Below are positions 13,274-54,283 of a stretch of DNA of 64,000 bases, one piece after another; the stretch's first letter is position 1; each line of letters opens with the position of its first letter. The DNA comes from an uncultured Ruminococcus sp. GTDB lineage: Bacteria > Bacillota > Clostridia > Oscillospirales > Ruminococcaceae. Below the pieces are notes generated by a model, which ran no database searches, was not told the origin of the DNA, and saw only the letters and a list, made by a program, of their open reading frames with translations. The stretch is taken from contig CAZGAZ010000008.1 of assembly GCA_964523835.1 (NCBI GenBank), positions 2,792-66,791 of the forward strand. The letters run 5' to 3'. The translations under genes were made by a program, and so were the position numbers.

Positions 13274-13429
13274 ATGAATGACCTTATGTATGTGATATTT
13301 GCAGACGGGGTCGCTGACCCGTTTTCATATGCCGTTTACGAGTTCGAGGAGTTTCTGCCCGTTATACTGCTTATTGCGGCTGTGATAGTTGTTACGGTCA
13401 TAATAATAAAAAAGAGTAAAAAGAAATAG
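13274..13429 (+). CDS. 51-aa single-TM microprotein (MNDLMYVIFADGVADPF...FLPVILLIAAVIVVTVIIIKKSKKK)
   Basis: Translated by hand; AAGGGG RBS 7 nt upstream; paralog of the next ORF. Confidence 0.8.
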   Translation: MNDLMYVIFADGVADPFSYAVYEFEEFLPVILLIAAVIVVTVIIIKKSKKK

Positions 13430-13448
13430 GGTGAGGGGGGAAAATCAA

Positions 13449-13595
13449 GTGAACTGTGTGATATTTGCGGACGTGGTTTTTGACCCGTTTAAAATTGCGG
13501 TTTACGAGATAAGGCATAAGCTGCCTTTGATACTGCTTATTGCGACTGTGATAATCGTCACGGTCATAACAATAAAAAAGAATAAAAAGAAATGA
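13449..13595 (+). CDS. 48-aa single-TM microprotein (MNCVIFADVVFDPF...KLPLILLIATVIIVTVITIKKNKKK)
   Basis: Translated by hand; GTG start after GAGGGGGG; nucleotide paralog of 13274..13429 with the frame preserved. Confidence 0.75.
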   Translation: MNCVIFADVVFDPFKIAVYEIRHKLPLILLIATVIIVTVITIKKNKKK

Positions 13596-13605
13596 GGAAT
13601 CTATC

Positions 13606-14484
13606 ATGAAAAGAAAAAGAATTTTAACAGTAATTTCGGCGATACTGGCTTGCTGCACGGTGGCAGCGGCAGGAACAACGGTGTGGGCGGACGACGATGA
13701 TGTACTGACGCCCCCTCAGGACAGCTTTTACGAGCTTTACGAAAGCCAGTGCGAGCTTCACGATTACAGAAGCTTCAGGGCTGCGGTTGATTTCGATGTA
13801 TTTGCAAGTCCCATTGACCAGAGAAGCGTAAGGCGTGTAGGCGTGGGAGAGGTCATTTCCACCAATGTTTCCTATACCGCCCCTGACGGCGTTATCTGGA
13901 GCTATGCTTATTCGGAAACAGGTATTGGCGGCTGGTTCAGAATGGAAAATGTCTCCCTTGTTTACGACAGTATTGCATTCACCGAGGAACATCAGAACGA
14001 GCTTACTCCCTATGCGGGGCAGCTGGACGGCTTTTCGCCTACGGCATATCTTTATCTGTGGACATATCCCGGTTCGGGAGAGGCGGAGAATATCTGCCGT
14101 GCGGGTGATGAATGGTTCACCAACGGAGATGTTCAGAATCTGGGCGAGCGTGCGGCTTATGTTTACAGGGACGCCGGCGGCAGCGAATGGGTTTATCTTG
14201 ATTTCCTGCCGAGCGGCTGGGTATATGTTCCGAATCCCGAGGCAGATCTGCGCAGCGGCGTTCCTGCGGTCAATGTGAATAATAATACAAACAATGACGA
14301 GGAACTGGGGGACACTTTATTTGAAGATGTTGAGGCGGGTGCTGCAATTGTCGGCGTATCGGCTGCCGATGTATCGGCAAGTTCATCGGCAAATGATTAT
14401 ACACTGCCGCTGGGGCTTTCTGCCGTTCTTGCGGCGGGGATTACGGCTGCAAAGAAAATCAAAAAAGAGAGGACGAATGAATGA
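13606..14484 (+). CDS. Secreted, C-terminally membrane-anchored protein, paralog 1 (YD.I.F.EEH / WTYPGSGE family)
   Basis: Sec signal peptide ending VWA; C-terminal LP-hydrophobic-KKIKK tail; shares blocks with the next two ORFs. Confidence 0.85.
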   Translation: MKRKRILTVISAILACCTVAAAGTTVWADDDDVLTPPQDSFYELYESQCELHDYRSFRAAVDFDVFASPIDQRSVRRVGVGEVISTNVSYTAPDGVIWSYAYSETGIGGWFRMENVSLVYDSIAFTEEHQNELTPYAGQLDGFSPTAYLYLWTYPGSGEAENICRAGDEWFTNGDVQNLGERAAYVYRDAGGSEWVYLDFLPSGWVYVPNPEADLRSGVPAVNVNNNTNNDEELGDTLFEDVEAGAAIVGVSAADVSASSSANDYTLPLGLSAVLAAGITAAKKIKKERTNE

Positions 14485-15356
14485 AAATGAAAAGGACAGC
14501 ATTGTTAAAGCTTATGACGGGAATATTGGTTTCCTGTACAGTCATGCTTTGCGGGACAAGTGTGTTTGCAGACATCATTGCGGCTCCTCCGCACAACACG
14601 AGATTTTACGAGCTTTATCATGATGAATGCGAGCATGAAAATCGTGAAAGAGGTTACAGTGCTCTGACGGATTTTAACACATATATGAGCCCCCTCAGCG
14701 ATCAGGTCGTTCGGCATATTAATAAAGGGGACGTTCTGCATTCCAATACCTTTTACACCGACAGCGAGGGAGTGCGCTGGGCTTATGATTACAACTGGGA
14801 CTGGGATGACGTTACAAAAGCCGGCTGGTACAAAACGGAAAATGCCATACTTATTTATGACAGTATTTCCTTTGAGGAGGAGCATAGGGACGAGTTTGTG
14901 TATAACAAAGGTCAGCTGAATGATTATACTCCCGAAAAACAAGTGGTTTTCTGGACATATCCCGGTTCGGGAGAAATTGATTTTATCGTTTCCAAGGAAG
15001 AATGGATACCCAAAAAAGGTTATGTCGACATAACGGATAAAACCTATGCCGATGAGAATGGAGATGAATGGCTGTATATCGCACGGGGTTTCCGCAGCTG
15101 GGTAAATCTCTCCGACATTGAGGGAGAGAATGCAGCCGAAATGCAGGGCGAAAGGATATACGTTACCACCGAGGCTATTGAAGAGGCTTACGAACCGGCT
15201 TTAGCCGTCTCGAATATTCCCATTTCCGACAGAGATGAAAAGTCGGATTTCCTGCTGCCGATCATTCTCGCCCTGTGCGCTGCCGCAGCTGCGGGAGGCT
15301 TCCTTCTCGGTATCATGGCTGAAAAGAAAAATAAGAAAGCGAGGACGAATGAATGA
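14481..15356 (+). CDS. Secreted, C-terminally membrane-anchored protein, paralog 2
   Basis: Signal peptide ending VFA-DIIAAPP; DSEGVRWAYDY, YDSISFEEEH, WTYPGSGE; DFLLP-TM-KKNKK tail; ATGA overlap with upstream gene. Confidence 0.87.
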   Translation: MKMKRTALLKLMTGILVSCTVMLCGTSVFADIIAAPPHNTRFYELYHDECEHENRERGYSALTDFNTYMSPLSDQVVRHINKGDVLHSNTFYTDSEGVRWAYDYNWDWDDVTKAGWYKTENAILIYDSISFEEEHRDEFVYNKGQLNDYTPEKQVVFWTYPGSGEIDFIVSKEEWIPKKGYVDITDKTYADENGDEWLYIARGFRSWVNLSDIEGENAAEMQGERIYVTTEAIEEAYEPALAVSNIPISDRDEKSDFLLPIILALCAAAAAGGFLLGIMAEKKNKKARTNE

Positions 15357-16237
15357 AAATGAAAAGGACAGCATTGTTAAAACTTATCACGGGAATATTG
15401 GTTTCCTGTACGGTTCTGCTTGGCGGGACAAGAGTGTTTGCGGACGTTATCGTTGAGCCTTGGGGAGAAAGCGCTGATTTTTACGTGCAGCACATCAGTG
15501 AATGCGAGCTTGAATATTTTGGGAGAAATTACAGTGCGCTGAAGGATTTTGACATATTGACCAGTCCGCTCGGCGAGACCGTGCGGCACGTACAAAAGGG
15601 CGATGTTCTGTATTCCAATGTCATTTACACCGACAGCGAGGGGGTGCGCTGGGCTTATGACTACAACGGTGAAGATACGGAAAAAGCCGGTTGGTTCAAA
15701 ATGAAAGATGTTGAGCTTGTTTACGACCGTATTTCTTTTGAGGAGGAACATAAGAGCGAGTTTGACGAATATAAAGGTCAGCTGAATGATTATGTGCCCC
15801 AAAATTATGTTATTCTTTGGACATATCCGGGTTCGGGAGAGATAAAAGAGGTATGTCCCCGGGAAACATGGTTTATCGATGGTTATGTGTTTACATTAGA
15901 TGAAACGGCAATGTACACTTATTTTGATGAAAGCGGAATTGAATGGGTGTATCTGGGCTATGGCTTCTATGGCTGGGTCGATCTCTCCGACATTGAGGGC
16001 GAGGCGTACACCGAAGAAGCCGCCGAAACGACTATGTCCGAGGACAGCAGGGTATACGTTACCACCGAGGACATTCAGGAGGCTTCCGAAATGGTCTTAG
16101 CTATCTCGGATATCCCCGAGCCGCCCGCTCCCGACGGGAAAGACAAGCCGGATTTCCTGCTGCCGATAGTTCTCGCCCTGTGCGCTGCCGCTGCTGCGGG
16201 AGGATTCCTTGTGGGAACTAAACGGAAAAAGCCGTAA
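15353..16237 (+). CDS. Secreted, C-terminally membrane-anchored protein, paralog 3
   Basis: Signal peptide ending VFA-DVIVEP; same conserved blocks; DFLLP-TM-KRKKP tail; ATGA overlap. Confidence 0.87.
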   Translation: MKMKRTALLKLITGILVSCTVLLGGTRVFADVIVEPWGESADFYVQHISECELEYFGRNYSALKDFDILTSPLGETVRHVQKGDVLYSNVIYTDSEGVRWAYDYNGEDTEKAGWFKMKDVELVYDRISFEEEHKSEFDEYKGQLNDYVPQNYVILWTYPGSGEIKEVCPRETWFIDGYVFTLDETAMYTYFDESGIEWVYLGYGFYGWVDLSDIEGEAYTEEAAETTMSEDSRVYVTTEDIQEASEMVLAISDIPEPPAPDGKDKPDFLLPIVLALCAAAAAGGFLVGTKRKKP

Positions 16238-23527: not shown

Positions 23528-23971
23528 AGAGGCAAGAAACAAGAAGCAAGAGGCAAGATTTTGCAAGCCTTAAGTTATAAACTGAGGCTTGCAAATATCT
23601 TGCTTTTTAATTTTACGGCATTGCCGCAGTGCAAAGGGTCACAATATTCCTCTTGCTTCTTGCCTCTAACCTCTCTGATAGAGGCAAGAAAAAAGAAGCA
23701 AGAGGCAAGATTAGTTATACACTGAGGCTTGCGAATATCTTGCTTTTTAATTTCACAGCATTGCCGCATTGCCATAGTTTAAGGGGTCACAATATTCCTC
23801 TTGCTTCTTGCCTCTAACCTCTCTGATAGAGGCAAGAAAAAAGAAGCAAGAGGCAAGATTAGTTATACACTGAGGCTTGCGAATATCTTGCTTTTTAATT
23901 TCACAGCATTGCCGCATTGCCATAGTTTAAGGGGTCACAATATTCCTCTTGCTTCTTGCCTCTAACCTCTC
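23528..23971. repeat. Three tandem ~148-152 bp MITE/REP-like units with terminal inverted heptamer repeats
   Basis: Units start at 23528, 23680 and 23828; units 2 and 3 read as identical; ends are AGAGGCAAGA...AGAAGCAAGAGG and CCTCTTGCTTCTTGCCTCT. Confidence 0.9.
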
Positions 23972-24007
23972 TCCGAAAATTAAAATGTAAATTTTTTGTA
24001 AAGTGTA

Positions 24008-24049: not shown

Positions 24050-24139
24050 GGAGACGTATCGAAGTGGTCATAACGGGGCTGACTCGAAATCAGTTAGGGA
24101 GCCTATCCCCCGCGAGTTCGAATCTCGCCGTCTCCGCCA
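24050..24139 (+). tRNA. tRNA-Ser (anticodon CGA)
   Basis: GGAGACG/CGTCTCC acceptor stem plus GCCA, anticodon loop CTCGAAA, long variable arm, GTTCGAATC T-loop. Confidence 0.95.
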
Positions 24140-26144: not shown

Positions 26145-27056
26145 TTATGAAAGTCCCGATAAATTTTTGTCAATGTACTCTGTAAGCGGCTTTTTAATTA
26201 CCTTATCCGAATTGTTTTTATACCATTCAAAAGCCTCCGTCAAGCCCCTTTCCAACGGCTTCACACTGCCCATTAATTCATACTGTCTTGAAACCTCCAG
26301 ATAATATTCATAATCATAAAAGCAGAAATAATTTCTTTGGAAAATATCCTCATAAACATTTATAAACCGAGGCTTTTTCTCCGCAGCGCCATAGCACATT
26401 TCCACCCACTGCCGCACGGAAACCGTCTCTCTGTTCCCAACATTAAAAATATGCTGCAAAGGCTTCTTCTCCAGAATAATTTCCGCAAACCTGCATAAAT
26501 CATTGATATGAAAAAACTGCAGCTTCATTTCCCCGTCCCCGGGCAAATAAAAAGCCCTGTCATTCATCGCACAGTCAAACACAAAAGCCTCCCTGTAAAC
26601 ATTATTCATCTGCCCGTACAAATACGGCGGACGAATGATATATCCCCCGGGAAAACGCCTCATCAAAGCAGCCTCCGCCCCTATCTTATCCGTCCCGTAT
26701 TTTCCCCATATCTTATTTTCCCCGACCTCTGTTTCCTCCGTAAAAGGCTGCGCAGCATTTTCGGGATAAACCGCACTTGAGCTTATCAGAATGTAATCCC
26801 CGAATCCACCAAGCCCGTCCATCAGCAGCCCCACGTCCTCCGCATTATATCCCGTGTCAATAACAGCGTCAAATTCATATCTCCGCAAAATATCCCCCAG
26901 TTTGTGCCTGTCCGCACAAATCAGCCTTACCCCCTCAGACTGCGCCCTGCTGTTCCTGTTAAGCACATAGACCTCCGCCCCAAGTCCCACGAAATATTCT
27001 GCCAGATATCTGCTCACAAAAACCGTCCCGCCCGTAATAAGTATTTTTTTATTCAT
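26145..27056 (-). CDS. NAD-dependent epimerase/dehydratase family protein
   Basis: ILITGGTVFVS Rossmann variant, ISSSAVY, YGTDK (YxxxK), RPPYLYG. Confidence 0.85.
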   Translation of the reverse strand: MNKKILITGGTVFVSRYLAEYFVGLGAEVYVLNRNSRAQSEGVRLICADRHKLGDILRRYEFDAVIDTGYNAEDVGLLMDGLGGFGDYILISSSAVYPENAAQPFTEETEVGENKIWGKYGTDKIGAEAALMRRFPGGYIIRPPYLYGQMNNVYREAFVFDCAMNDRAFYLPGDGEMKLQFFHINDLCRFAEIILEKKPLQHIFNVGNRETVSVRQWVEMCYGAAEKKPRFINVYEDIFQRNYFCFYDYEYYLEVSRQYELMGSVKPLERGLTEAFEWYKNNSDKVIKKPLTEYIDKNLSGLS

Positions 27057-27057
27057 C

Positions 27058-27134
27058 TTTTTCCACTCCGTTAATTAAACTTTCACACCAAAGGTACGTT
27101 GAAACTTAGGGGTTTTCCGCTAACTTTCAAACTT
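27058..27134 (-). repeat. 74-bp two-hairpin repeat, cluster A (1 copy)
   Basis: Minus strand AAGTTTGAAAGTTAGCGGAAAACCCCTAAGTTTCAACGTACCTTTGGTGTGAAAGTTTAATTAACGGAGTGGAAAAAG followed by ATG. Confidence 0.9.
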
Positions 27135-32042: not shown

Positions 32043-32192
32043 TTTTACCTCCCGCTAATCTTTCGTTCGCACCAAAGTTTCTCTGAAACTTAGGGGATTA
32101 TCGCTAACTTTCAAACTTTTCCACTCCGTTAATCAGACTTTCACACCAAAGGTACGCTGAAACTTAGGGGTTTACCGCTAACTTTCAAACTT
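32043..32192 (-). repeat. 74-bp two-hairpin repeat, cluster B (2 copies)
   Basis: Two tandem units on the minus strand ending ...GATTAGCGGGAGGTAAAA followed by ATG 32042. Confidence 0.9.
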
Positions 32193-33922: not shown

Positions 33923-34115
33923 ACAGGCATTTTGCTTGAATTTTTTGTGCGGCATTTTTTCTCCGTTTTTTTTAAAATCCCACGAAATTTTCCGCATTTT
34001 ACATAAGCCGTACAATTAATTTTCTATCCTATAAATCTATGATTTGCACACAGGATATTCCACAAATCAAACCGCATTTTCACATAAATTTCCAAAGGCA
34101 GAGCAGCTCAAAAAG

Positions 34116-34257
34116 CAGGGCATTAAATTTTCTTGCCTCTTGCCTCCGGCTTCTTTCCTCCGGCAGGGCATTAAATTTTCCTGCCTATAGCTTCCGGCTT
34201 CTTGCCTATAGAAGCGCATTAAATTTTCTTGCCTCTTGCTTCCTGCTTCTTGCCTCT
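34116..34257. repeat. Three tandem 48-bp units containing the pyrimidine heptamer repeat
   Basis: GCATTAAATTTTC recurs at 34120, 34168 and 34216. Confidence 0.85.
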
Positions 34258-43988: not shown

Positions 43989-44098
43989 GCAGCCGAATCA
44001 GGTGCGCAGGCAATTCTTGCCTCGTGCCTCTTAAACTCTAAGTGCAGGCAAAATGCAGCCGAATCAAGAGTACATATAATTCTTGCTTCTTGCCTCTT
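43989..44098. repeat. Two ~66-bp direct units containing the pyrimidine heptamer repeat
   Basis: GCAGCCGAATCA at 43989 and 44055, each followed by AATTCTTGC(C/T)TC.TGCCTCTTAAA. Confidence 0.75.
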
Positions 44099-44125
44099 AA
44101 AATCCAGTAGAAGGTGGTTATTTTT

Positions 44126-51188: not shown

Positions 51189-51303
51189 GGAAGCTTTTGC
51201 AGTTACCGCATAAATTTTAATTAACGGTAATTTGAATTTTTTTTGCGGAGAAGCAAGAGGCAAGAAGTTTGTGAGGGGACGATCTCCGAAAGGTACTTTG
51301 ATT

Positions 51304-52647
51304 ATGGAATTAACTGTGATAGGCGCAGGCTTTGCAGGGTGCGAGGCGGCGTGGGCGGCGGCTGAGCGGGGCGTTAAGGTCACGCTGACAGAGATGAAGC
51401 CGAAAAAATTTTCTCCTGCGCATAAGTTAGGATTTTTCTGCGAGCCTGTATGCTCAAACTCCTTTAAGGCGGCTCGGATAAATTCGGCGGCGGGACTTCT
51501 TAAAGAGGAAATGCGCAGGCTGGGTTCGCTCACTGTGCCCTGTGCGGAAATGACGGCTGTTCCTGCAGGGGGGGCGCTGGCGGTGGACAGGGAGAAGTTT
51601 TCCGCTCTGGTGACGGAAAAAATCAGGTCGCACCCCAATATTACGGTGGAAATATGTGAGGCGGAAAATATCCCCGAGGGGGCTGTGGTGATTGCGACGG
51701 GGCCTTTGACGGCGGGGAAAATGGCCGAGAGCATTGGGGAGATATGCGGAGGGTATCTGAGCTTTTACGATGCGGCTGCGCCTATTGTTACGGCGGAGTC
51801 GGTGGATATGTCCGTTGCCTTTGCGGCGGCAAGGTACGGCAAGGGCGGGGATGATTACATTAACTGCCCGTTTACAAAAGAGGAATATCAGGCGTTTCAC
51901 AGGGAACTGGTAAATGCCGAATCTGCGCCGCTGCATGAGTTTGACAGAGAAAGCTCCGGGCGTGATGATTTTACGGTTTACGAGGGGTGTATGCCCATTG
52001 AAGTGCTGGCTAAGCGTGGGGAGGACGCTGCAAGATACGGGGCTATGAAGCCTGTGGGTCTTGACGACCCGAGGACGGGGCGGTGGCCTTATGCGGTTGT
52101 GCAGCTGCGGCGGGAAAACAACGAGGGCAGCCTTTACAACATTGTGGGGTTTCAGACAAATCTGAAATTCGGGGAGCAGAAGAGGGTATTTTCCATGATA
52201 CCCGGTCTCGGGAATGCGGAGTTTGTGCGGTACGGGGTCATGCACAGAAATTCGTTTATTGATTCGCCGAAAATTCTATCGGGGGATTTTTCCCTGAAAA
52301 GCCGTCCCGGACTGTTTTTTGCGGGACAGATAACGGGGGTGGAGGGATATATGGAGTCGGCTGCGTCGGGGATTATGGCGGGGATAAATGCGGCAAGACG
52401 TTTGCGGGGCACGGACACACTTATTCTGCCGAGGGAGTGCATGATAGGTGCGCTGGCGAGGTATATTTCCGATGAGACGGTGGAAAATTTTCAGCCTATG
52501 GGGGCGAATATGGGAATACTTCCCGAGCTGCCCGAGCGAGTAAAGGGAAAGCAGGAGCGGTATCAGGTCATTGCGGACAGGGCGCTTGCGTCGCTTGCGG
52601 CTGTCGGTAATATTGCGGGAGATTTGAAGTTTGAAGGTCAGCGGTAA
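51304..52647 (+). CDS. trmFO: tRNA (uracil-54-C5)-methyltransferase, folate/FAD-dependent
   Basis: IGAGFAGCEAA, VCSNSF, PAGGALAVDR, VGFQTNLK, YGVMHRN, AGQITGVEGY. Confidence 0.97.
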   Translation: MELTVIGAGFAGCEAAWAAAERGVKVTLTEMKPKKFSPAHKLGFFCEPVCSNSFKAARINSAAGLLKEEMRRLGSLTVPCAEMTAVPAGGALAVDREKFSALVTEKIRSHPNITVEICEAENIPEGAVVIATGPLTAGKMAESIGEICGGYLSFYDAAAPIVTAESVDMSVAFAAARYGKGGDDYINCPFTKEEYQAFHRELVNAESAPLHEFDRESSGRDDFTVYEGCMPIEVLAKRGEDAARYGAMKPVGLDDPRTGRWPYAVVQLRRENNEGSLYNIVGFQTNLKFGEQKRVFSMIPGLGNAEFVRYGVMHRNSFIDSPKILSGDFSLKSRPGLFFAGQITGVEGYMESAASGIMAGINAARRLRGTDTLILPRECMIGALARYISDETVENFQPMGANMGILPELPERVKGKQERYQVIADRALASLAAVGNIAGDLKFEGQR

Positions 52648-52849
52648 ACCCCTGAGTTTCAGTGTATCTTTGGTGCGAAAGATTAATTGGCGGAGTGGAA
52701 AGTTTGAAAGTTAGCGGTAAACCCCTAAGTTTCAGCATATCTTTGGTGTGAAAGTCTGATTAACGGAGTGGAAAAGTTTGAAAGTTAGCGGTAAACCCCT
52801 AAGTTTCAGCGCACCTTTGGTGTGAAAGTTTAATTAACGGAGTGGAAAA
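52627..52849 (+). repeat. 74-bp two-hairpin repeat, cluster C (3 copies)
   Basis: Units start at 52627, 52700 and 52774; the first overlaps the trmFO 3' end; the last abuts ATG 52850. Confidence 0.92.
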
Positions 52850-53359
52850 ATGAATGAGCCTGTTTTCGATTATAATTTTAAAATAAAAGTGCGCAGGGTA
52901 TCTCCGACGGTTTACACCGCACTTTTCATTCTGGGGCTTTTATGTATACCGAGAACTTTGGCGGGGGTATTTGTTTTATACATACATCTTGCATTCAGTG
53001 CGCCGCCGGACGCCGCTTCGGATGATTCCTTCATTGTGCCGATCATTATAATCGCCGGGATCGTTATTCCCCTGATAGTTGCGGTGTTCGGCATCGGGCT
53101 GTGGTTTTCCGGTGTGGACACGCATCTTCGGTTTTACGAGGATCATTTTGAGTCGGAGGGCAGAGCGCCGAAAAAATATGAGGCAAATTTCTCCGCAGAT
53201 TACTCGCAGGTGGAGCGTATAATCAGGCAAAACGGTATTTATATATTGTATTTCAGCAAAAGATTGGCTTTTATGGCAGGCGGCAGCGAGCTTACCGACC
53301 CCGCTGCGTTTGAGAGCTTTCTTATAAGAAAAACGGGGAAGAATATAATTTACAGATAA
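52850..53359 (+). CDS. YcxB-like membrane protein
   Basis: Two TM segments, then a soluble domain with the F.EDHF...YSQV......Y.LY...AF pattern. Confidence 0.7.
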   Translation: MNEPVFDYNFKIKVRRVSPTVYTALFILGLLCIPRTLAGVFVLYIHLAFSAPPDAASDDSFIVPIIIIAGIVIPLIVAVFGIGLWFSGVDTHLRFYEDHFESEGRAPKKYEANFSADYSQVERIIRQNGIYILYFSKRLAFMAGGSELTDPAAFESFLIRKTGKNIIYR

Positions 53360-53572
53360 AAAAACCGGAGAGTTGATACTGATCCTATTTTATGATCGGT
53401 TTAAAAAGAGCAGAGAAGCAAGAGGCAAGCAATAACCGGTAAATAACCGAAAGAAAGCCGACTTCGGAAATGATGCGGATAATTTCCGTGAATTTTTAAA
53501 GGAAAAAACAGGGAGTATTTTTAATAAATAATTTGTGATTCGATATGCGGAAATTTAAATTTTGAAAGGTGA

Positions 53573-53725
53573 AAGTTTGAAAGTTATAGGTAATCACCTA
53601 AGTTTCAGCGCACCTTTGGTGTGAAAATCTGATTAACGGAGTGGAAAAAGTTTGAAAGTTATAGGTAAACCCCTAAGTTTCAGCGTACCTTTGGTGCGAA
53701 AGACTGATTAGCGGAGAGGAAAAAA
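53573..53725 (+). repeat. 74-bp two-hairpin repeat, cluster D (2 copies)
   Basis: Units start at 53573 and 53648; the last abuts ATG 53726. Confidence 0.92.
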
Positions 53726-54283
53726 ATGAAAAATAAAAATGACGATGTGACAATAGGGAGATTTTTAAGCCTTGTTTTGCGGCATGATCCGAGTGCTGCG
53801 GAAATTACTCTTGACAAAAACGGTTACGGAGATGTTGAGGAGCTTATTAGGGGTGTGTCGAAAAAATTTCCCGGATTTTCCATGGAAGATTTAGAGAGGA
53901 TCGTGGAAAACAACAACAAGCAAAGGTATGCTTTTAATGAGGACAAGACCAAAATAAGGGCGAGGCAGGGGCATTCCGTCAAGGGAATAGACCTGGGGCT
54001 GGCGGCGGTAAGTCCGCCGGAGCTGCTTTATCACGGCACGTCGGAGGCAAGTGCGGCGGCGATAAAAAATGAGGGGATAAAGAAAATGTCAAGGCATATG
54101 GTTCATCTTTCGGCGGATATACAGACTGCGGAAAAGGTGGGAGCACGCCATGGAAAGCCGTATATTTTTACGGTTAGATCGGGGGAAATGCACAGGGACG
54201 GGTTTGAGTTTTTCCTTTCGGAAAACGGGGTGTGGCTGACGGAATTTGTGCCTGCGGATTATTTCGGGGCGTTCGGGATGTAA
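53726..54283 (+). CDS. kptA: RNA 2'-phosphotransferase (KptA/Tpt1)
   Basis: LSLVLRHDP, KQRY, IRARQGHS, LYHGT, RHMVHLS, NGVWLT. Confidence 0.95.
   Translation: MKNKNDDVTIGRFLSLVLRHDPSAAEITLDKNGYGDVEELIRGVSKKFPGFSMEDLERIVENNNKQRYAFNEDKTKIRARQGHSVKGIDLGLAAVSPPELLYHGTSEASAAAIKNEGIKKMSRHMVHLSADIQTAEKVGARHGKPYIFTVRSGEMHRDGFEFFLSENGVWLTEFVPADYFGAFGM

Follow-up and report, generated by a model that had tools for sequence, protein, structure and literature searches.

A repeat of about 74 nt occurs in eight copies within a 64,000-nt stretch of DNA from an uncultured Ruminococcus sp. (positions 2,792 to 66,791 of contig CAZGAZ010000008.1, hereafter the window). The copies form four clusters, and each cluster ends on the start codon of a gene. 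The window corresponds to C8:2792-66791 of its own genome, G000, which is assembled as 3.63 Mb in 181 contigs. For comparison, we used 29 other species genomes of the same genus, among which G010 (an uncultured Ruminococcus sp. metagenome-assembled genome (MAG), CAMWLD01) and G012 are the nearest relatives (YchF identity 98%), followed by G014 (94%). The eight copies, four clusters, and consensus sequence given in an initial annotation of the window were all recovered, and the consensus found no match in shuffled sequence (0/100 shuffles). As that annotation had also stated, the arrays end directly before start codons, namely the ATGs at 27056, 32042, 52850, and 53726, one per array.

The longest array (52627..52849, plus strand) is located between trmFO and a gene encoding a 169-aa protein and consists of three units of 73-75 nt with starts at 52627, 52700, and 52774. 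Its last unit provides the Shine-Dalgarno (SD) sequence GGAGTGG and an A-run, followed by the ATG at 52850. Upstream of the array, the native SD (GGGAG) and leftover spacer of the 169-aa gene are retained (52616..52626, plus strand) and agree with G012 (GCGGGAGGTTT), in which the site itself is free of repeats (GCGGGAGGTTTAAGAAATGAATGAGCC). The native SD now faces a TTG of the element at 52631-52633. The trmFO open reading frame (ORF; 51232-52647) reads through the beginning of the first unit (52631..52647, plus strand) and uses an element TAA (52645-52647) as its stop. As a result of the insertion, the C-terminal residues of TrmFO are altered (window 52610-52647) as compared to G012, where trmFO ends ...GGAGGTTTAAGAAATGAATGA and its TGA overlaps the ATG of the next gene (ATGAATGA).

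The second plus-strand array (53573..53725) has two units, ends on the kptA ATG at 53726, and is also found in contigs L016-L019 from other samples. To its left lies the native SD GAAAGGTG (53564..53572, plus strand); in G012 this SD (TTTGAAAGGA) serves a GNAT-like gene, which is absent from G000. On the minus strand, a two-unit array at 32043..32192 combines units from different subfamilies, the second of which ends GCGGGAGGTAAAA directly before ATG 32042 of a 218-aa gene, and a solo unit at 27057..27134 ends GGAGTGGAAAAAG before the epimerase ATG 27056. The two-unit array has an empty counterpart in G012 (AAAGGAGATAGAGAAATAATGAAATTGGAAGATG), and the epimerase site is empty in both G012 (CAAGGAGAAAAAAGATGAAT) and G010 (CAAGGAGAAAAACAGATGAAT). 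The labels given initially to the downstream genes were borne out by Pfam for the epimerase and KptA and found no Pfam support for the CdiI-like and YcxB-like proteins.

A profile built from the eight window copies was searched with nhmmer against the G000 contigs. The search returned 309 matches, and the 279 with E<1e-5 group into 204 clusters, of which 140 are solo, 40 double, 22 triple, and 2 quadruple, spread over 101 contigs. The copies make up ∼0.6% of the genome, almost every one is distinct, and the mean identity to the consensus is 90%. Contig ends are found within 100 bp of 33 clusters, and the repeat is therefore one of the main causes of breaks in the assembly.

The adjacency to start codons seen in the window is a general rule. 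Start codons of ORFs of 50 aa or more follow 143 of the 174 clusters whose 3' end is complete, and the offset is +1 to +4 in 130 of them (∼75% of 174; +3 in 107, +1 in 18, and +2 or +4 in 5). At random positions, an ATG-initiated ORF of at least 50 aa is found at +1 to +4 in 1.7% of cases. The remaining 31 clusters comprise 17 that run into a contig end or into a related element starting at the same point, ∼11 with ATG, GTG, or TTG at the expected place and a short ORF, and only 1-2 with no start codon. Downstream of the copies lie ∼200 functionally unrelated genes, many of them housekeeping genes (e.g., hfq, miaB, dnaB, tsaD, mnmE, aroQ, valS, cmk, polA, trpA, rnhA, dapF, ilvC, ychF, and argS). 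ATGAA is more common at the starts of the target genes (41% vs 27%, p = 9e-4) and A is enriched at +3 to +11, which suggests that recognition probably reaches into the first codons. The enrichment fits what may be a sequence-guided choice of target.

The 5' boundary of the unit is sharp, with A, A, G, and T at positions 1-4 in 98, 95, 97, and 91% of copies, respectively. The 10-nt left terminus is AAGTTTGAAA and the right end is ...CGGAGTGGAAAA; read from the sequence, the ends AAGTTTGAAAG and GGAGTGGAAAA are not inverted repeats. The 5' flank is variable, is purine-rich at -10 to -3, and contains an SD-like motif in 85.5% of clusters, as compared to 19% of random 13-mers. A GGTGAA-like sequence in this flank had been interpreted as a remnant of the repeat's own end. 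Because it matches the SD of the sister species, it is instead the native SD of the displaced gene. At start-codon distance from this SD, a TTG occupies positions 5-7 of the element in 195/204 copies. The mini-ORF that begins at the TTG most often spans 15 codons (123 copies), with 19-codon (30 copies) and 25-codon (17 copies) versions also present; a conserved peptide was ruled out, as the 195 copies encode 118 different peptides. Stops in all three frames are present within the unit in 161/204 copies, and after the stops come the element SD (GGAGTGG, GGGAGG, or AAGGAG, depending on the subfamily) and an A-run reaching the ATG. In arrays, consecutive units meet at the junction GGAGTGG-A(2-5)-GTTTGAAAG with a period of 73-75.

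The initial annotation left two interpretations standing, a structured RNA and a mobile element. According to the first, the repeat would be a structured cis-regulatory leader RNA, solo or in tandem, that controls translation of the downstream gene. Its position speaks for this, as the repeat is always found in the 5' leader, in sense orientation, and with the SD included. So does hairpin 2, which needs G.U pairs and would fold only as sense RNA. We therefore turn to the pairing itself, scored for 171 distinct copies against controls of our own (shuffle and slide). In hairpin 2, the only variation is a change of pyrimidine facing a fixed G, and the hairpin forms in 163/171 distinct copies when G.U pairs are admitted, as compared to 33/171 with Watson-Crick pairs alone. 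Hairpins 1 and 2 do not differ from the shuffled controls in the fraction paired or in how many double changes they show. The hairpin 2 counts follow subfamily ancestry and are not read as selection. In hairpin 1, the outer stem is invariant and hence uninformative. At the inner-stem position where TCAG...CTGA had been cited as a compensatory change, 32 of the 36 variant copies carry a C.A mismatch and 4 a compensated C-G pair, making compensation the rare outcome. A third, weak hairpin shows an excess that tracks subfamily structure, and RNAalifold gave no consensus fold. When the window was searched against Rfam 15, a tRNA was the sole match, with nothing at E<0.6 or near a cut-off at 52500-53800. 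The proposed covariance and Rfam check thus produced no family and no covariation above shuffles. Furthermore, a leader RNA would have to act on ∼200 genes of unrelated function (∼300 copies in all) whose sister-species orthologues are expressed from a plain SD-ATG, and it would have to do so with 1 to 4 units per site and with subfamilies mixed. We conclude that the 74-nt repeat is not a cis-regulatory RNA or a shared regulatory signal, and we assign next to no weight to the leader RNA explanation.

The distribution of the repeat among relatives points to insertion. Diverged copies were found in only 2 of the 29 other genus genomes, G010 (12 matches) and G012 (2 matches), and a wider pattern scan of 185,579 species genomes found only the G010 MAG and one contig of an 'Alistipes' MAG. 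The arrays and genes of that contig (CAZDWY010000047.1; L002/L003) are identical to those of C65 in G000, and this identity makes it probable that the contig comes from the species of the window and was misbinned. An examination of relatives for empty sites, as suggested by the initial annotation, was informative: across G010, G012, and G014, 13 orthologous sites are empty (ychF, tsaD, dnaB, hfq, dapF, miaB, argS, trpA, cmk, and the four window loci). At the first eight of these, G000 has 1-2 units, and in the relatives the SD, spacer, and ATG follow one another without interruption. G012 is empty at each of the four window loci. The empty sites reveal no target duplication. The cmk site holds subfamily 1 in G000 and a different one in G010 and is unoccupied in G012, which indicates independent insertions at one site. 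From these comparisons, the repeat is best described as a lineage-restricted, recent, orientation-specific insertion between the native SD and the ATG. As a separate observation at one of these loci, G012 has a partial duplicate of the first 85 ychF codons directly upstream of the full gene (G012:C97:2879-3133; L046).

The arrays themselves carry a record of how they arose. Neighboring units diverge by 12.9%, as compared to 16.1% for random pairs, and the neighboring unit is the nearest relative for only 15/103 units. Mixed-subfamily arrays occur at mnmE and at 32043-32192. That neighbors are rarely nearest relatives suggests that arrays grow mainly by repeated insertion, and the layout of the unit junction, which resembles a target (SD, A-rich spacer, TTG, AAA), explains why insertion takes place behind an existing copy. 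The same data bear on a second explanation, in which the repeat would be a MIRU-like minisatellite spread by slippage, unequal crossing-over, or gene conversion with no transposase involved. MIRU (mycobacterial interspersed repetitive units) are short tandem units in operon junctions, the small ORFs of which touch flanking stop and start codons. Here too, head-to-tail tandem arrays lie in operon junctions and small ORFs touch neighboring genes, the junction A-run varies in length (period 73-75), and the native spacer is replaced rather than merely interrupted. However, 140/204 clusters are solo and dispersed, the period is not a multiple of 3, the low share of nearest-relative neighbors is at odds with local duplication, and the sharp 5' boundary comes with a terminus that is shared with a transposase-bearing insertion sequence (IS), described below. 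We make no claim of a family relationship with MIRU and regard the minisatellite explanation as very unlikely.

The initial annotation had also suggested that the repeat helps to capture accessory genes. This idea did not survive the comparison, as the targets include dnaB, hfq, tsaD, ychF, mnmE, ilvC, dapF, miaB, argS, and trpA, and the gene order trmFO - 169-aa gene - kptA - plsX exists in G012 without repeats, which shows that the repeats did not bring these genes in. In G012 (C175; L083:1790-2500), an extra GNAT-like gene lies between the 169-aa gene and kptA. In G000 (window 53360-53725), the SD of the GNAT gene (TTTGAAAGG) is joined via two units to the kptA ATG. This suggests that exactly one gene, the GNAT-like gene, was lost between two same-oriented initiation regions.

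A possible source of mobility came from other repeats in G000 that also start with AAGTTTGAAA and are located after a native SD or after the SD of a 74-mer. These include a 293-nt element with 16 copies in G000 (complete at C19:29193-29485, C6:18263, and C32:26265), which ends ...GGTGCCTTTCGCAGAAAGGCGGTTTATAAAAATG (SD plus A-run) on the ATG of three different genes. A search of G000 with PF01548 revealed two IS110-family transposase genes, one of which lies antisense in a 1.65-kb full-length element at C104:7507-9155. This element begins AAGTTTGAAAATAC, has the same 10-nt left terminus, and contains a ∼290-nt noncoding region upstream of the transposase. The encoded protein contains DEDD_Tnp_IS110 (PF01548) and Transposase_20 (PF02371) domains and scores 230 bits against NF033542, 'IS110 family RNA-guided transposase' (cut-off 140 bits). 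Over its right 56 nt, the C104 IS matches the right end of the 293-nt element at 84% identity (E = 2e-13). Transposase copies that are 96-98% identical are located at contig ends in G009 (96%) and G012, and the G009 IS has a right end that stops precisely at an unrelated gene's ATG (...AAAGGCGGATTATAAAG up to the boundary, then ATGGGAATC; ATGGGAATCTATC). Taken together, the same left terminus and the same orientation recur in the full-length IS, the 293-nt element, and the 74-mer. All three also have the insertion point in common and place an outward SD directly against the start codon. In addition, the three nest into each other at the same junction.

Several further observations concern these relatives of the repeat. 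One copy of the 293-nt element starts at C8:69525, just beyond the end of the window. Antisense to the target gene, the 293-nt element contains a perfect TTGACA-17 nt-TATAAT promoter, downstream of which come a structured stretch of ∼150 nt and a hairpin that resembles a terminator and has a U-run. By this layout it looks like a small RNA (sRNA) gene on a mini-IS, as in MITEPpu9, and the putative sRNA could be a bridge RNA supplied in trans. The second IS110-family element (C23:16640-18250) has a 408-aa ORF and different ends, the right one of which (...ACCAAAGGAGCGGCGGAAA) lies directly against a small gene's ATG; the noncoding region of this element gives a sub-threshold match to STAXI RNA (23.5 bits vs cut-off 40.5). 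No Rfam model scored above threshold against the IS noncoding regions. A repeat starting ACCAGCTATGAAAAGTCAATAGGGAAAAGCAAAAATTAAC... is found at contig ends of G000 (C108, C11:58757, C60, and C93), where it begins directly after a native SD (AAGGAG) or a 74-mer SD and its remainder is unassembled. A further element, E3 (AAGTTTGAAACAAGAATC...), occurs only at three contig ends in G000, is absent from the genus, and was recovered without its remainder.

Based on these findings, the 74-nt repeat is a mobile element and its copies are a record of transposon activity. The second of the two original interpretations, a nonautonomous element that inserts at ribosome-binding sites, is upheld by the SD-ATG position, the single orientation, the empty sites, and the left terminus, right-end layout, and target rule shared with the IS110 element. 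Insertion is orientation- and site-specific, with no terminal inverted repeats and no long target duplication, and as in IS900 it falls between the SD and the start codon in one orientation only. Our current hypothesis, to which we assign a probability of roughly 0.7, is that the 74-nt unit is a transposase-less miniature mobile element, most likely of an IS110-family clade that targets translation initiation regions. The unit is inserted in a single orientation between a gene's own SD and its start codon, with the native SD to its left facing the element TTG and with the stops, the element SD, and the A-run preceding the ATG. An IS110-type recombinase would mobilize the copies in trans, perhaps in the form of single-stranded circles. 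The 3' end of the unit (SD and A-run, then TTGAAAG in arrays) would imitate the target, so that tandem arrays build up as new copies insert after existing ones. With its own stops and SD, the unit would keep the downstream gene translated, and insertions would accordingly be tolerated and accumulate.

A number of observations weigh against this hypothesis. The only full-length copy of the IS in the assembly (C104) is a pseudogene, with TAA at the codon of the catalytic Glu. The 74-mer resembles the IS and the 293-nt element to a limited extent, with an identical 10-nt left terminus (p ∼0.01-0.02) and a right half that is only weakly similar (p = 0.007-0.13 for subfamily 1, with other combinations of subfamily and target ranging from p<0.001 to 0.48). 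No direct parent IS of the 74-mer was found, which is why the IS110 assignment is held at about 0.7 and not higher. The bridge-RNA guides were not identified, and a comparison of the IS noncoding region with the 74-mer gave just two 8-mer matches, TCCGTTAA and CTTTCAAA. These k-mer coincidences, along with AAACTTAT, which matches the predicted circle junction, and AUGAAAAGG, within the first hairpin, are suggestive at most. Arrays in the contigs of two other samples are identical to those in G000.

The junctions also resist a simple model. Most of the native sequence from the left junction to the ATG (3-8 nt) is missing (GGAT at dapF, ATAA at trpA, TAAA at tsaD, and AAATAA at ychF), and only argS keeps its native spacer, AAATATA. 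Positions -2 to -6 before the target ATG are 82-97% A, as compared to 35-47% in other genes. A conservative exchange of a 2-nt core would retain every target base, and thus the junctions do not fit it. When AA, AG, and TG were considered as a single core dinucleotide, none fit all sites. At C57:14070-14213 in G000, two units begin ATGAAACATAGCGG and ATGAGACATAGCGG instead of AAGTTTGAAACATAGCGG (AAGTTTG), and the left junction retains an ATG; ∼ten downstream genes begin with the element-like AAGTTTG. Both observations suggest that the exchange point around the start codon is not fixed. Possible explanations for the spacer loss are mismatch-tolerant pairing resolved towards the donor, later trimming of the A-run that restores SD-ATG spacing, or a noncanonical pathway.

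These junctions leave some room for mobilization by a different system, for example a single-strand transposase of the IS200/IS605 or RAYT type that works on the hairpins, or an uncharacterized recombinase, in which case the shared AAGTTTGAAA would reflect convergence or target mimicry. The misfit with conservative core exchange, the two hairpin-like segments combined with the lack of terminal inverted repeats, and the weak similarity to the IS110 element beyond 10 nt speak for such a system. The initial annotation had named a Y1/RAYT partner as a candidate to look for. No match to Y1_Tnp (PF01797) and no RAYT was found in G000, whereas the control genomes were positive. The hairpins also speak against it, as the inner stem of hairpin 1 is mismatched in 32/36 variant copies and hairpin 2 pairs mostly by G.T, which is poor in DNA. 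A different mobilizer would further have to account for the terminus, orientation, insertion point, and mutual nesting that the 74-mer has in common with the IS110 and 293-nt elements. We consider it unlikely, though deserving of more weight than the leader RNA or minisatellite explanations.

Other classes of element were considered and did not fit. A classical MITE (a miniature transposable element with inverted repeats) does not agree with noninverted termini or with native bases that are lost and not duplicated. A REP/RAYT or IS200/IS605 palindromic element is not supported, given the absence of PF01797 and hairpins that are unsupported as Watson-Crick DNA. An integron attC or cassette array was discarded on the basis of the spread over 101 contigs, the housekeeping targets, and the misfit of GTTTGAA with GTTRRRY, an integrase not having been searched for. 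A TA-target (mariner-like) element was ruled out by the flank composition.

Two features of the window are separate from the 74-mer. A dispersed family of CTTGCCT/CTTGCTT heptamers, unrelated to the 74-mer in sequence, is located at 23573-23972, 34114-34256, 43989-44104, and 53395-53425 and often flanks 74-mer sites; it includes a 148-bp tandem array at 23573-23972, beside a tRNA (24050-24136). At 13291-16215, paralogous segments of ∼870-900 bp that are 63-87% identical suggest a gene that may have been tandemly triplicated.

IS110 recombinases are under development as programmable genome-writing tools, for which minimal substrates and off-target behavior are active questions. In G000, ∼300 insertions of a 74-nt donor can be compared with matched empty sites in sister species, a natural data set that bears on the limits of donor size, target mimicry, and half-match recombination. 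The target is set by function (SD-spacer-ATG) and not by one fixed sequence, and the element inserts behind itself. For annotation, the elements explain in this species a large share of contig breaks, repeated 5' leaders liable to be misread as riboswitch-like RNAs, and altered C-termini (e.g., TrmFO). A more far-reaching proposal, which we put forward tentatively and hold to be doubtful as a whole, is that a natural bridge-recombinase system has yielded a minimal donor of 74 nt that reproduces its own target, a translation initiation region, at its 3' end. Such a donor would multiply to hundreds of copies and insert behind itself to form arrays, probably as a single-stranded minicircle. With its SD and, in most copies, stops in all three frames, it would act as a portable translational insulator, and same-oriented copies at successive gene starts would allow exactly one gene to be deleted or shuffled, e.g., the GNAT-like gene.

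In the literature, we found no description of a miniature derivative that is present in high copy, targets gene starts, and supplies an SD. The nearest precedents are IS900/IS901, for their translation initiation targets, and MITEPpu9. As summarized in passages of PMC2942039 and PMC8141618 that cite Doran 1997 and Inglis 2003, IS900 and IS901 of the IS110 family are reported to insert one-way between SD and start codon. The orientation and the site are the same here, and the transposase is antisense to the target, as in the C104 element. IS900 and IS901 are full-length elements of ∼1.4 kb with 15-20 copies in an actinobacterial host (Mycobacterium avium group), whereas the 74-mer is gene-less, has ∼300 copies, forms tandem arrays, carries an outward SD, and resides in a Ruminococcus-like Firmicute host.

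The mechanism of the wider family offers further parallels. IS110/IS1111 elements use bridge or seek RNA, and mini-IS consisting only of the ends can move with the transposase and noncoding region in trans (PMC11187229). IS621 is reported to excise mainly as a single-stranded circle, with donor-only 'half-match' recognition driving both its excision and its off-target insertion (preprint 10.64898/2026.08.31.748434); these properties would make a 74-nt donor and insertion behind existing copies plausible. Like IS621 and ISEc11, the elements described here are linked to an NF033542 transposase with both Pfam domains and a ∼290-nt upstream noncoding region. They differ in that the guide loops were not identified and in the loss of the spacer, which is unexpected from a 2-nt core exchange. 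In Pseudomonas putida, a MITE-like derivative of ISPpu9 is present in 8 copies and uses an AG core (PMC12288879). This derivative, MITEPpu9 (ssr9 module), is a nonautonomous IS110-family element that uses the IS ends and transposase (PMC12288879), and the 293-nt element resembles it in apparently carrying an sRNA gene with a promoter and terminator-like hairpin. MITEPpu9 is several hundred bp long, has 8 copies, and targets REP sequences, whereas the 74-mer has no sRNA gene and targets gene starts.

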